Source: an uncultured Chloroflexia bacterium
Lineage (GTDB): Bacteria > Chloroflexota > Limnocylindria > Limnocylindrales > CSP1-4
NCBI GenBank assembly: GCA_963712735.1
Contig: CAVQIZ010000005.1
Span: forward strand, 490,535 to 554,534
Reading direction: 5' to 3'
Length of the DNA stretch: 64,000 nt
Shown: positions 56,648 through 61,663 of the stretch, in pieces
Numbering within the stretch: position 1 is the first letter of the stretch
Layout: each line of letters starts with the position of its first letter
Notes under the pieces: model-generated
Seen by the model: only the letters and a program-made list of their open reading frames with translations
What the model was told of the DNA's origin: nothing
Database searches by the model: none
Position numbers and translations under genes: made by a program

Positions 56648-56724
56648 CGGGGCGTGGCGCAGCCTGGTAGCGCACTTGACTGGGGGTCAAGAGGTCGCTG
56701 GTTCAAATCCAGTCGCCCCGACCA
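56648..56724 (+). tRNA. tRNA-Pro (anticodon GGG)
   Basis: Acceptor stem CGGGGCG/CGCCCCG, D-arm GCGC, anticodon stem CTTGA/TCAAG with loop CTGGGGG, GTTCAAATC T-loop, encoded CCA. Confidence 0.98.
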
Positions 56725-58148: not shown

Positions 58149-59153
58149 TCAATACCCGGTTCCGGTTCCCGCCTCCGCAAGGAGTACCGCTCAGCCTCGA
58201 GGTAGTTCTCGTTCATCGCTCTGGTCTCCAAATAGGTCATGAGGAGTCGGCTGACCGGCACGCGCGCACTGATGAGCAGGCGCCTCCGCCGCTCAGAGTC
58301 GCCCGCAAGGTGACTTCGCGCAACCGCCTCATCGAACGTCATGGAGACGAGCGTGTATCGACGGCCGGCATCGGGCGGGCCGTCCGCTGAGATGCCGCGC
58401 CACAGAAGCACCCGCTCCTGACCCAGCTGCACGAAGAGCGCCCGCAGGAACGCGAGCCGGGTGCACACATGGGTCGCCCGATGCTTGCGAGACCATGCAC
58501 CCTCGAAGGTGGCCGGGTCCCGCACGATGGTGCCCGCGTACGCAGCAAGACCGAGCTCGGCGATGACGATGCGGTGCCCCTTGACGATCTCGCCCGCGTA
58601 CGGATGGCAGACGAACTGCCGAGTGAAGGCCTGGTCCATCTCCCACAGACCTCGGTCCCGCATGAATGACTCGAGGTCCGCCATCAGCAACTCGTCCCCG
58701 CGACGCGTGGCCGGGTCCGGCAGCGGCCGCTGCGAGGCGAGGAAGCGCGAATGCACACCCAGCCAGGTGTCGGCACGCGCCGTCAGTTCGCCGATCCATC
58801 CCTCCGTTTCGCGGCGGTCGTTCAGGTCAGGTTCCATCAGCAGCGGGCGACCGAGGCGCTCGACGATGTCCCGGAACTCGTCGATCGCCTCATCGCTGGC
58901 ACGATGCGATCCGAGGGCGAACTGGTAGTGGTCGACTGCCTCGATCGGGATCCTCCCACGTCGCCCCTGCGTCCTTGAAGGCGTCCACGCGCAAGACCAC
59001 GAAACCGGTATCGAGGTGGAGGTCGAGGATGGTCACCGGCGTCCGACGCGGGTCCAGCATGCGTCCGGTGTTGCCGATGACGAGGTGATGTAGGTCTCCG
59101 GGCTCGAACTCGGAATCTGGCGCGCTTTCGGGGTCGGTCTGGTAGATGGACAT
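58149..59153 (-). CDS. Hypothetical protein of about 335 aa with a C-terminal ADP-ribosyltransferase-like (R-S-ExE) domain; rebuilt across two 1-nt frameshifts (near 58950 and 58190)
   Basis: Joining frames gives MSIYQTDP...ATWE|IPIEAVDHYQF...LLWRGIS...LVSMTFD...RVPVSRLL...YLEAE|AVLLAEAGTGTGY*. Confidence 0.6.
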
Positions 59154-59505
59154 CGCTCGCCATGATGGTATCGGGGTGAGAGCGTGAGACGACAGAAGTC
59201 CGCATCCGCTCCCGATGGCGCCATGACGGCGGAAGCACCTGTCCCACGGCTGCGACATCTGCGCAGGCACCTACTGCTGTGGGCAGCCTTGGCATCGCCG
59301 TGGTCTCGCCGATGTGACTCGCCATGTCCACGCGCCCGACACTCGGCATCGTCCTCGGCTTGAGATCGGCCGGTCTCGCGGTCACGCTGCCCGAGCGCTG
59401 GGCCACCTTCCCGTCGGTCTTGGTGAGGACCCGGAGACGCCGGCGCTCGCCGCTGCCGGGTCGTGGCCCGGAACGGGTGGACCGAAGTGGGAGAATCGCC
59501 GTGAT

Positions 59506-59580
59506 CGCGGGAGGCGATGAGGCACGGCCCGCACCTTGGCCGCCTGAGCCGCGCCGAGCCACTGGCGAACCCGACTCGCG
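59506..59580 (+). ncRNA. c-di-GMP-II-like riboswitch, copy A (variant)
   Basis: P1 CGCGGG/CUCGCG; P2 GGC/GCC; kink-turn GAU-GA...GAG; P3 GGCACGGC/GCCGCGCC; pseudoknot CGCC/GGCG; 3' AACCCGA; TGg-GAGAAT -10 upstream and GAGGGGGG SD downstream. Confidence 0.8.
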
Positions 59581-59593
59581 TATGAGAGGGGGG

Positions 59594-59653
59594 ATGTCTC
59601 TGCACCTCTCGGGCGGGCCCTTCGAAGGCGTCGACCTAGTGCACGAGGACTGA
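59594..59653 (+). CDS. 19-aa small ORF (MSLHLSGGPFEGVDLVHED) or truncated gene downstream of riboswitch copy A
   Basis: Strong SD GAGGGGGG immediately upstream; no similarity recognised. Confidence 0.35.
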   Translation: MSLHLSGGPFEGVDLVHED

Positions 59654-59792
59654 AGGGAGACGTTCCGGGGCAAGCCGTGGACATGGCCAGCTAGCCCCGC
59701 GAGGCGTGCGCCGCAAGAAGCGGGCCGCAACTCCCCTCGAGGGTGGACCGCGGTGCTGAAGGGCTTGGCGTCGAGCGAGCGACAGAGGTGCA

Positions 59793-59866
59793 CGCGGGCG
59801 GCGACGAGGCACGGACATAGCCTTGCCGCCGGGACCGTGCTGAGCCGCTGGCGCACTCGGCCCGAG
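59793..59866 (+). ncRNA. c-di-GMP-II-like riboswitch, copy B (more divergent variant)
   Basis: P1 CGGG/CCCG; C-GGC/GCC; kink-turn GAC-GA...GAG; P3 GGCACGG/CCGUGCU; pseudoknot CGCC/GGCG; 3' CACUCGG; GAAGGGA SD then ATG 59882. Confidence 0.72.
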
Positions 59867-59881
59867 CAGAAGGGATCTGTC

Positions 59882-60613
59882 ATGCACACACTGCAGCGTT
59901 TGCTGGCGGGAGCCGTCGTCATGTCGTTGCTTGGACTGACCGGCGTCGGCGGCGCCAGCGCGGAGGACGAGGACTGGTACAGGTACGACCCGGAGTGGCC
60001 GGTGTGGCACCAGAAGGTGCGGCAGCTCGAGGCAGGGATCGCCGACAATGAGGTGGCGCAGGCGGTCACACGGGTAAGACTCGCCAGCCTCTCCGATACC
60101 TATCGCGGGGCCATCTACCGCCTCTTCAGCCCAGTAGGCTGGGCCACGAGCCTTCAGGCTGCCGAGAACCGGCTGCGCATCCTCCAGATCAAGCGCGAGT
60201 CCCTGGTAGACGAATGGGACCGCGCTCGCAACGAGGTGGTGCGTATCGAGACCGACCCGGAGCGCGAGAGGTTGGCCCAGCTGCGAATGGCAACCCGTCT
60301 GTCAGTCGGCACCGCCTACCCAGAAGACTACGGGGTCGACCCGAGCCAGTTCGTCTTCGGGCCCAACATCGGCTACAGGGTGTCGTGTGCGGCCATGAGC
60401 CGGGACGAGGGCAGAGAGGACCTGGAGATCGGCAGGAAGCCCATCGGCGCAGCTAGCCGCGAGGAGATCGCCGAAGTCATCGCAGGTCCGCTGGAGGGCT
60501 GCGTACCCAACGAGAAGTTCAACGCGAAGCTGATCATCGAGGCGATGACCGTCGATCGCCGAGAGGTCATCGCAACGTACGAGGGCACGCTGCGCACGTA
60601 TCCAGGGAGATGA
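59882..60613 (+). CDS. Secreted hypothetical protein with a coiled-coil region
   Basis: Signal peptide MHTLQRLLAGAVVMSLLGLTGVGGASA|ED; heptad-like helices (LQAAENRLRILQIKRESLVDEWDRARNEV). Confidence 0.75.
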   Translation: MHTLQRLLAGAVVMSLLGLTGVGGASAEDEDWYRYDPEWPVWHQKVRQLEAGIADNEVAQAVTRVRLASLSDTYRGAIYRLFSPVGWATSLQAAENRLRILQIKRESLVDEWDRARNEVVRIETDPERERLAQLRMATRLSVGTAYPEDYGVDPSQFVFGPNIGYRVSCAAMSRDEGREDLEIGRKPIGAASREEIAEVIAGPLEGCVPNEKFNAKLIIEAMTVDRREVIATYEGTLRTYPGR

Positions 60614-60789
60614 TCGACGGGCCCAGGCCCACCACCGGTCTGCTCCACGCGATCCCTCGTGGGGCGGGCCGCGGGAGCTCGCGCCATGCGCACGGTCTAT
60701 CAGCAGACGCACCATGGCCAACCTGGTCGGCTCAGCCGCGGCCGCGTCGGGACGGAACCGGTCGGGTCAGTCGCTCACTCATACCAGTA

Positions 60790-60862
60790 GCGGGAGGCTG
60801 CGAGGCACGGCCCGTCGATTATGGCCGCCAACCGTGCTGAGCCACCGGCGAACCCGACCCGC
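60790..60862 (+). ncRNA. c-di-GMP-II-like riboswitch, copy C (variant)
   Basis: P1 GCGGG/CCCGC; A-GGC/GCC; kink-turn UGC-GA...GAG; P3 GGCACGG/CCGUGCU; pseudoknot CGCC/GGCG; 3' AACCCGA; GGGGGGA SD then ATG 60884. Confidence 0.82.
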
Positions 60863-60883
60863 GCACATCTTGGGGGGACTCTC

Positions 60884-61417
60884 ATGCGTACCCAGCGACT
60901 GTGGTCGGTGGCGACGGTCACCCTGGTGCTCCTGGCCGGGCTCACCGCGGCCGCCGTGGCCCAGGAGGCAGACGAGCACGCGCTCGTCACGCACGTGACG
61001 GGGACCATCATCGGCACGTCCTACGACGACTCGATGGCGAACGTGACGTACGCGCCCGGCGACGGTCACCACGTGGAGGGCGCCCAGTACACCGAGACCA
61101 ACGTCTGGGGCGACCCACGTCTTCCCGCCGACAAGAGGATGATCCTCAACTTCACCACCTATCCGGATGGCGACGGTCAATTCATGGTCACTCACACAAG
61201 CATCCGCCTCGACGGACCGGATGGTGCGTGGGCGGGCACCGGGGTCGGCCTGGCGTACCCGGACGGCACCAGCGAGGGCCAGGACGTGCTCGTCGGCGAA
61301 GGAGCCTACGAGGGCCTCACCGCCGTGCTCTACTGCGGAACGGACATGGGCTGCAGCGGGTCCATCTTCGAGGGCCAGATGCCCGACCAGCCGGGGCCTG
61401 TACCGCCGGTCGAGTGA
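60884..61417 (+). CDS. Secreted beta-rich hypothetical protein
   Basis: Signal peptide MRTQRLWSVATVTLVLLAGLTAAAVA|QE; Gly/Thr-rich strands, LVGEGAYEGL motif. Confidence 0.78.
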   Translation: MRTQRLWSVATVTLVLLAGLTAAAVAQEADEHALVTHVTGTIIGTSYDDSMANVTYAPGDGHHVEGAQYTETNVWGDPRLPADKRMILNFTTYPDGDGQFMVTHTSIRLDGPDGAWAGTGVGLAYPDGTSEGQDVLVGEGAYEGLTAVLYCGTDMGCSGSIFEGQMPDQPGPVPPVE

Positions 61418-61462
61418 CGAGCGGACACCTGCCGGCGGAGCCGCGATGGCGTGGCCCCCCGT

Positions 61463-61663
61463 CTATGCCGCCGGACGGCTCCGGTCGTGCTGTGCCGGGC
61501 CCGCGTGGAACGCGGGGTGGCCGTCACGCGCGGCGCAGCCCTGGCTCCAGCGGTGGGTTCCGGCGCACAGGTAGCACCACGCCGTCGCCTGTGCCGGCCA
61601 GCCCGCCTTGCGCTCCTTCTGCCCGATCTCTCGTCCGTACTTGCCCGATGCGTGCTTCGTCAT
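61463..61663 (-). CDS. Possible 66-aa small protein with Cys/His motif (WCYLCAGTHRWSQGC)
   Basis: GAGGG SD 6 nt upstream of the ATG; CxxC-x3-H-x5-C pattern. Confidence 0.4.
   Translation of the reverse strand: MTKHASGKYGREIGQKERKAGWPAQATAWCYLCAGTHRWSQGCAARDGHPAFHAGPAQHDRSRPAA

Follow-up and report, generated by a model that had tools for sequence, protein, structure and literature searches.

A-C-G pocket aptamers of the c-di-GMP-II riboswitch clan upstream of secreted-protein genes in a Chloroflexota genome

Riboswitches with the c-di-GMP-II (GEMM-II) fold are grouped in one Rfam clan (CL00127), whose canonical family, RF01786, is represented by the solved complex 3Q3Z from Clostridium acetobutylicum with cyclic di-guanosine monophosphate (c-di-GMP). 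The clan also includes two variants, GAG (RF03169) and GCG (RF03170), which were reportedly defined by Weinberg et al. in 2017 (PNAS). In this study, we characterized three aptamers of this clan that lie on a stretch of 64,000 nucleotides (hereafter the window: positions 490,535 to 554,534 of contig CAVQIZ010000005.1, assembly GCA_963712735.1) from an uncultured bacterium of the phylum Chloroflexota. All three read A-C-G at the positions after which the variants are named, a real pocket state that has neither an Rfam family nor a name of its own, and comparison with related sequences suggests that the C of this triplet is a tolerated or tuning change rather than a clear switch of ligand.

The ligand contacts in 3Q3Z are made by A13, A14, U37, G39, U60, A61, C68, A69, A70, C71, C72, G73 and A74 (PMC7288161). 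Among these residues, A69 reads one guanine of the ligand (G-alpha), G73 reads the other (G-beta), and A70 intercalates between the two ligand bases and contacts a ribose; in the solved complexes position 70 contributes this stacking and the ribose contact, and no base-specific hydrogen bonds (PMC13715770). Our scans of the window (RF03170), of a Clostridium beijerinckii locus (RF01786) and of a Chloroflexia locus (RF03169) provided the consensus and structure lines for the clan's three models. The structure line is identical in the three models, in which the 3' strand of P2 is separated from that of P1 by 14 unpaired positions; the consensus of these positions is AGUgGUGCAACCGg in RF01786, AgUGGCGAGACCGa in RF03169 and AgUGGCGAGCCCGa in RF03170. 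Because the 14-nt junction is the same in all three models, the alignment is gapless and its register is fixed. Combined with the contact list and the residue roles, this implies that the 14 positions correspond to residues 61-74 and that the families are named after residues 69, 70 and 73, the canonical family being AAG.

A preliminary description of this DNA had used the 3Q3Z numbering and had guessed that the names GAG and GCG refer to positions 69, 70 and 73. The numbering used there turned out to be consistent with the published contacts and roles (PMC7288161; PMC13715770), and the guess is confirmed by the clan consensus lines. In addition, a 21-mer of its reference sequence is present in 32 loci of Clostridium type, which are scored as RF01786. 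A shifted register, in which the AA of GGCGAACCCG would represent A69 and A70 and an extra C would be inserted, was rejected on the basis of the equal junction lengths in the three Rfam models. The covariation of positions 40 and 68 (C-G and U-A) also speaks against it, as does one copy in the genome that reads GGCG-G-AA-CC-G in the same frame.

When the whole window was scanned with Rfam at gathering thresholds (47.9 bits for RF03170 and 53.5 bits for RF01786), a single riboswitch match was obtained, copy A, which was assigned to RF03170 (c-di-GMP-II-GCG). A permissive scan of 59300-61100 added copies B and C, both as matches to the same model, and all three are on the forward strand. Copy A (59501-59585) scores 63.4 bits (E 8e-11), above the gathering score, and 93 bits with a lineage covariance model, R1, which we built from 17 copies. 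Its loop residues are U37 (59537), G38-G39 (59538-59539) and C40 (59540), its pseudoknot joins 59541-59544 with 59564-59567, and its pocket strand includes A61 (59561), A68 (59568), A69 (59569), C70 (59570), G73 (59573) and A74 (59574). Copy C (60784-60868), which has a shortened linker 3' of the pseudoknot strand, scores 43.3 bits (E 6e-6), below the gathering score, and 91 bits with R1, and its pocket consists of A69 (60852), C70 (60853) and G73 (60856). The divergent copy B (59788-59871) is likewise below the gathering score (44.9 bits, E 2e-6) and reaches 70.9 bits with R1; it has A69 (59855), C70 (59856) and G73 (59859), together with C13, U38, G61, C68, U71 and G74. The junction 61-74 reads ACUGGCGAACCCGA in copies A and C and GCUGGCGCACUCGG in copy B. 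The P3 loop of the window copies is UGGCCGCC, with U37 and C40, whereas the RF03170 consensus has CGGUCGCC, with C37 and U40 pairing with G69 and A68.

Most residue-level statements of the preliminary description were borne out by these alignments: U37, G39, A69 and G73 are kept in all three copies, position 70 is C in each of them in the gapless register, and C40 and C62 (the changes G40C and G62C) are common to all. Its reading of the triplet as neither GAG nor GCG also holds, the copies nevertheless being members of the c-di-GMP-II clan. As a correction to that description, copy B departs further from the reference: A61, G38 and C71 are replaced by G61, U38 and U71, and A13 and A74 have given way to a C-G pair. 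Annotation based on Rfam would label all three copies c-di-GMP-II-GCG, a family that is itself catalogued.

The genome to which the window belongs is a Chloroflexota metagenome-assembled genome (MAG) of 3.9 Mb in 8 contigs, with 69% G+C and a completeness of 85%. It has 26 matches to RF03170, 22 of them above the gathering score. RF03170, RF03169 and RF01786 are the only Rfam models that compete at these sites: RF03169 also matches all 26, scoring 5-10 bits lower than RF03170 at the same sites, and RF01786 matches 23, none of them at its cut-off. RF03170 is the best-scoring model for 25 of the 26 aptamers, including the three window copies. The pocket is ACG in 23 aptamers, and AAG, AUG and GCG in one each. 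The AAG aptamer lies at C2:1113318-1113405, and a copy with GAC at positions 68-70 lies at C5:569297-569381. Copy B is both the most deviant and the lowest-scoring of the 26, and may be either decaying or specialised.

All 26 aptamers are in sense orientation just 5' of an open reading frame (ORF) with a Shine-Dalgarno (SD) sequence and a start codon; in a larger sample of leaders, the median distance from the end of the model to the start codon is 14 nt. The idea that these sequences are mere repeats, such as copies resembling miniature inverted-repeat transposable elements, was rejected in view of compensatory changes in the stems and this invariable placement. The downstream products are mostly proteins of 110-320 aa with signal peptides. 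At least 11 of the downstream genes in this genome form one paralogous family, and others encode an SRPBCC protein, a methyltransferase and a Kelch-repeat protein. Most likely, about 23 ACG aptamers control secreted proteins in this genome, within a regulon of about 26 members.

To describe how widely the A-C-G pocket is spread, R1 was used to search the loci of this genome, 22 congeneric genomes and loci from other Chloroflexota, which resulted in 136 distinct aptamers. ACG was found in 99 of them, GCG in 13, GAG in 11 and AAG in 9, other states being few. Position 70 is C in 113 of the 136 aptamers (83%). An ACG-specific pattern (GGCCGCC...GAGCCACTGGCGRACCCG) was present in at least 112 stretches of a species-representative collection, nearly all of them Chloroflexota MAGs. 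In a scan of genome contigs with a loose pattern, 19 of 118 loci were true aptamers by nhmmer, and most of the others were chance hits from genomes rich in G+C. When 301 Chloroflexota genomes were sampled evenly, RF03170-type matches were obtained in 45 genomes, distributed across 33 of 172 genera, and 40 of these genomes from outside the genus were fetched for pocket typing. Sister genera of the same family mostly have GAG, ACG recurs in four distant Chloroflexota families (f16, f3, f47 and f49), and other families have AAG. In these four distant families, covariation is seen in the pseudoknot (GGCCACC with GGUGA), and positions 40 and 68 occur in all four of their states.

For the canonical branch, 27 RF01786 matches from 8 Clostridium genomes were compared, 24 of which were above the threshold. 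Two of these 24 (loci L343 and L353) have A69-C70 with U73, reading GUGCACCCUGCC. This state is not reflected in the RF01786 consensus. Thus, C70 is common in the GC-rich branch of the clan, and rare but present in the canonical branch. The preliminary description had proposed a further variant; the triplet is indeed unnamed, but C70 itself is common, and not exceptional, in the GC-rich branch.

The c-di-GMP-II fold of these sequences, with P1, P2, P3 and a pseudoknot between the loop and the 3' tail, is supported by covariation. In the alignment of the 136 aptamers, double-sided changes occur in 14 of 24 pairs, including all 8 pairs of P3 and 4 of the 6 pairs of P1. Paired cells amount to 87%, compared with 20-45% for slid controls, and none of 500 shuffles reached the observed values. 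Because P1, P2 and P3 were part of the model to which the sequences were aligned, these pair counts lean towards the structure; the pseudoknot lies outside that model, and in family f16 its G-C pair 42-66 is replaced by A-U.

The pocket itself has a pattern of its own. Positions 37 and 69 covary (U-A in 99 aptamers, C-G in 16 and U.G in 4), and 37 is the top mutual-information (MI) partner of 69, which means that A69G in the GAG and GCG variants goes together with U37C; 37-69 looks like a maintained pair of Watson-Crick type beside the ligand. Positions 40 and 68 are C.A in 81 aptamers, C-G in 30 and U-A in 12. For position 70, no covarying partner emerged (maximum MI 0.12), as expected for an unpaired stacking base, and G73 is near-invariant. 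Conservation is much higher in the pocket than in the stems, which change by compensatory substitution, and positions 68-70 read AAC, GAC, GAA, AGC or AGA within one scaffold. Compared with the solved pocket, the ACG pocket differs at C70, at G14-C60, which lies under the ligand backbone and is A-U in the solved structure, and at 40-68, which is mostly C.A.

We then considered the genes next to the different pocket states. After clustering of 121 identifiable downstream proteins, in which the sequences of shared clusters were checked by eye, seven clusters of orthologous or paralogous genes were found to be preceded by ACG in some members and by AAG or GAG in others. For example, the SRPBCC cluster has 6 ACG, 1 AAG and 1 GAG, the methyltransferase cluster has 3 ACG and 1 GAG, and among secreted-protein paralogues ACG precedes one and AAG another. 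The states of positions 69 and 70 are thus exchanged without a change of the regulated genes, which is most simply explained by a common signal. On the other hand, the true GCG type forms a distinct element that has a target of its own. It has C37, U40-A68, G69, C70, the loop GGUCGCC and a P2 of 2 bp, occurs once per genome, and in 9 of 9 cases precedes a gene for a DUF5658 membrane protein (~97 aa). In the genome analysed here it is located outside the window (C2:459047-459132), and congeneric genomes have it at loci L035, L042, L045, L046, L048 and L056.

With regard to the signal, the genome encodes 11-12 GGDEF proteins, 9 of which have both GG(D/E)EF and the guanine-specifying Asp of GHxxGD, and one DAC protein. 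Given these intact GGDEF cyclases, c-di-GMP is the obvious available ligand. No Ser or Thr, as in Hypr-type GGDEF proteins (cyclic GMP-AMP (cGAMP) synthases), was found at the GHxxG[D] position among the GGDEF proteins of the genome, and one of them has Asn. Two further observations concern the assembly: the GGDEF domains at C1:160018-160489 and C7:1037528-1037994 are split across adjacent frames. This is consistent with indel errors of a long-read assembly or with pseudogenes, and fits an earlier remark on indels in this contig.

The expression platform is best seen in relatives outside the genus. In family f16, the ACG aptamers (L374, L376, L379 and L387) end in AACCCGAUCC, which is followed by GGAUCGGGUU and a U tract. 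The resulting hairpins, at -17 to -25 kcal/mol, use the pocket and the P1 3' strand as their 5' arm. The same terminator arrangement is seen in AAG aptamers from other families (e.g. CAACCGGCCACG...CGUGGCCGGUUGUUUUUU). Since the 5' arm of the terminator is the 3' strand of the aptamer, ligand binding should block the terminator, as in an ON switch. A scan of 59100-61600 in the window found neither a sigma-70 promoter nor an intrinsic terminator. Considering that the genus has no terminator and that the SD follows P1 directly, control is presumably translational there. Plain minimum free energy folds pair the SD in 38 of 102 leaders. A helix between GCGCAUG, in the 3' flank of P1, and AUGCG, in the start region, was attractive in single folds but was rejected, being barely above the control within ORFs (-5.98 vs -5.02 kcal/mol; at or below -6 kcal/mol in 46% of copies vs 33% in the control). 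By analogy with the relatives, an ON direction is slightly favoured for the translational versions of this genus.

Taken together, we lean, by a modest preference, towards the following explanation. The aptamers have the GEMM-II fold, with P1, P2, a kink-turn junction, P3 and the pseudoknot. Each precedes a gene that encodes a small secreted protein, as part of its 5' leader, the ribosome-binding site starts a few bases 3' of P1, and control is most likely exerted on the initiation of translation. As a Chloroflexota sub-type with the A-C-G pocket, they would bind c-di-GMP or a close guanine-containing cyclic dinucleotide made by the GGDEF cyclases of the genome, and binding would probably turn the genes ON. 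In relatives, positions 68-79 also serve as the 5' arm of the terminator, so that locking this strand in the aptamer would prevent formation of the hairpin. The replacement of the intercalating adenine by C70 would be tolerated or would tune affinity, rather than change the ligand. The observations cover the family assignment, the A-C-G pocket, covariation of the structure, the number of copies, the neighbouring genes and the platform logic that relatives share; the identity of the ligand, the ON direction of the translational versions and the effect of C70 are inferred.

Several points weigh against it. First, the conservation of C70 in 113 of 136 aptamers implies selection for C over A, unlike a neutral change, and the pocket also departs from the solved one at G14-C60 and C40.A68. 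Second, sister genera mostly have GAG; if GAG senses something other than c-di-GMP, the argument from the shared regulon would carry ACG along with it. Third, potential pairing of positions 64-79 as an anti-SD strand with the ribosome-binding site is hardly stronger than in the control (-10.7 vs -10.15 kcal/mol, p = 0.24). Fourth, among the signal enzymes that the preliminary description had named, GGDEF and DAC genes were detected but a SMODS-type CD-NTase was not, and as the genome is 85% complete, one could be missing. Finally, the searchable literature yielded neither a validated ligand for the GAG or GCG variants nor binding or expression data for any representative of ACG, GAG or GCG.

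One elaboration, which is a special case of the explanation above, is that A70 or C70 and the state of 40-68 set different affinities or kinetics for c-di-GMP across the regulon, so that its members would switch at different levels of the signal. The presence of mixed pocket states within single genomes and within paralogue families agrees with this idea, as do the occurrence of both A and G at position 68 opposite an unchanged C40 (81 vs 30) and the tandem arrangement of copies A and B before the same gene (gene 1, described below), an arrangement common among c-di-GMP-II riboswitches (PMC9481103). However, the minority states can equally be explained as recent neutral or slightly deleterious mutations, and we regard such graded thresholds as possible but rather unlikely.

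The central proposal of the preliminary description was an altered ligand specificity, in which A-C-G, G14-C60 and C40.A68 together would have been selected for a signalling nucleotide other than c-di-GMP, for example 3',3'-cGAMP, c-di-AMP, a 2',3'-linked dinucleotide, linear pGpG or another compound. Some evidence is in line with it. C70 prevails in the lineage and is met again in distant families of the Chloroflexota, the genome analysed here holds several pocket types side by side, and the exclusive association of GCG with DUF5658 implies that pocket types can be functionally separate. Moreover, when the A-U pair under the ligand backbone of a Bacillus GEMM-II aptamer was changed to G-C by engineering, affinity for 2',3'-cGAMP increased ~3-fold and that for 3',3'-cGAMP decreased ~3-fold (PMC13715770). 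All aptamers studied here carry G-C at this backbone-facing pair, and the lack of a confirmed ligand for the GAG and GCG relatives counts on the same side. Nevertheless, the proposal is not supported by the comparative evidence. The base readers A69, with its partner U37, and G73 are canonical, and position 70 lacks a covarying partner and, in the solved complexes (PMC13715770), any base-specific hydrogen bond. ACG and AAG share orthologous or paralogous target genes and the terminator design, GAG too precedes orthologues of these genes, and C70 is the majority state of the lineage. Neither a SMODS CD-NTase nor a GGDEF protein of the Ser (Hypr) type was seen in the genome. In spite of the points in its favour, this proposal appears doubtful.

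A broader version would treat the Chloroflexota pockets as combinatorial, with A/U37 or G/C37 for position 69 and A or C for position 70, and with at least two true specificity classes, in which ACG senses another nucleotide or binds c-di-GMP in a distinct mode and GCG senses yet another ligand. We consider it improbable, although of some consequence: if it were true, ACG, with 20-30 copies per genome, would be a natural ligand class not yet described for the GEMM-II fold, and its large paralogous set would help to identify the ligand of the GAG and GCG variants.

The least convincing view, namely that these elements no longer bind a ligand and are constitutive structured leaders or protein sites spread by duplication together with secreted-protein genes, could appeal to copy B, which lacks A13, G38, A61, C71 and A74 and still precedes an intact gene, and to the absence in the genus of an expression-platform helix with statistical support, but it is very improbable given that the pocket is far more conserved than the compensatory stems, that the same aptamer precedes unrelated gene families and hence was not simply co-duplicated, and that relatives couple it to terminators overlapping the pocket strand.

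As for the genes in the window, gene 1 (59882-60613, forward strand) encodes a protein of 243 aa with an N-terminal segment resembling a signal peptide. Its SD (AAGGGA) is at 59870-59875, and copy B ends 10 nt 5' of the ATG at 59882. A Pfam scan assigned no family to gene 1, and it has no paralogue among the riboswitch-controlled genes. Gene 2 (60884-61417, forward strand) encodes a secreted protein of 177 aa with a signal-peptide-like N-terminus, for which the Pfam scan gave no family either; its SD (GGGGGGA) is at 60872-60878, and copy C ends 15 nt 5' of the ATG at 60884. This gene is a member of the paralogous family mentioned above, which includes at least 10 further paralogues in the genome, with proteins of ~180 aa and the conserved motifs SDPRL, GPDG.W.G and G.G.YEGL. 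An AlphaFold2 model predicts an all-beta barrel (mean predicted local distance difference test score 87.4), with weak fold matches to DUF3224- and AbyU-like barrels (template modelling scores 0.4-0.55).

Copies A and B are 203 nt apart, without a recognisable gene between them. Directly 3' of copy A is a 19-codon ORF on the forward strand, from the ATG at 59594 to the end of the stop codon at 59653, with a G-rich SD, GAGGGGGG, at 59586-59593; it may be a gene remnant, a leader peptide or a spacer of a tandem riboswitch. Searches of the A-B spacer (59586-59787) by blastx and blastn matched only aptamers, and no protein or DNA homologue was found in the fetched loci. Gene 1 may be controlled by both copies in tandem, unless copy A is an orphan. 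In most ACG copies, P1 is flanked by a conserved GUA on the 5' side and GCGCA(UG) on the 3' side (e.g. 60787-60789 and 60863-60867), which do not form Watson-Crick pairs with each other. A tRNA gene (56648-56721, 64.4 bits) is located ~2.8 kb 5' of the riboswitch cluster.

These results place ACG as a third pocket state beside GAG and GCG, dominant in a group of soil Chloroflexota. Genomes with 20-30 copies offer a natural mutational series that could help to establish the ligands of the variant GEMM-II pockets, and any candidate ligand has to be compatible with the 37-69 pair, with an unpaired position 70, with the interchangeability of ACG, AAG and GAG before orthologues and with a GCG type that has its own gene. 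Should ACG aptamers turn out to bind c-di-GMP, the intercalating adenine would not be required; should they fail to, this well-studied fold would have a natural specificity that is new. Furthermore, a regulon of uncharacterised secreted proteins with predicted beta-barrel folds would point to second-messenger control of the cell surface or secretome.

Among the described systems, RF03170 is the closest to the window copies, with the same helices, junction lengths and pseudoknot, G14-C60, C70, G73 and a GC-rich scaffold, but its consensus has G69 with C37 and U40-A68, whereas the window copies have A69 with U37 and C40.A68. RF03169 (GAG) has the same scaffold and precedes orthologues of genes that are under ACG here, but it combines G69-C37 with A70, instead of A69-U37 with C70. 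Canonical RF01786, as represented by 3Q3Z, is identical to copies A and C at A13, U37, G39, A61, A69, C71, C72, G73 and A74, and shares the fold, the association with secreted or surface proteins and, in the case of the relatives, the ON logic of terminator versus P1. It differs by A70 instead of C, A14-U60 instead of G-C and G40-C68 instead of C.A, and its model scores below 53.5 bits throughout, with 47.8 bits for the best match in the genome, 44.6 for copy A and 26.5 for copy C, copy B not being listed.

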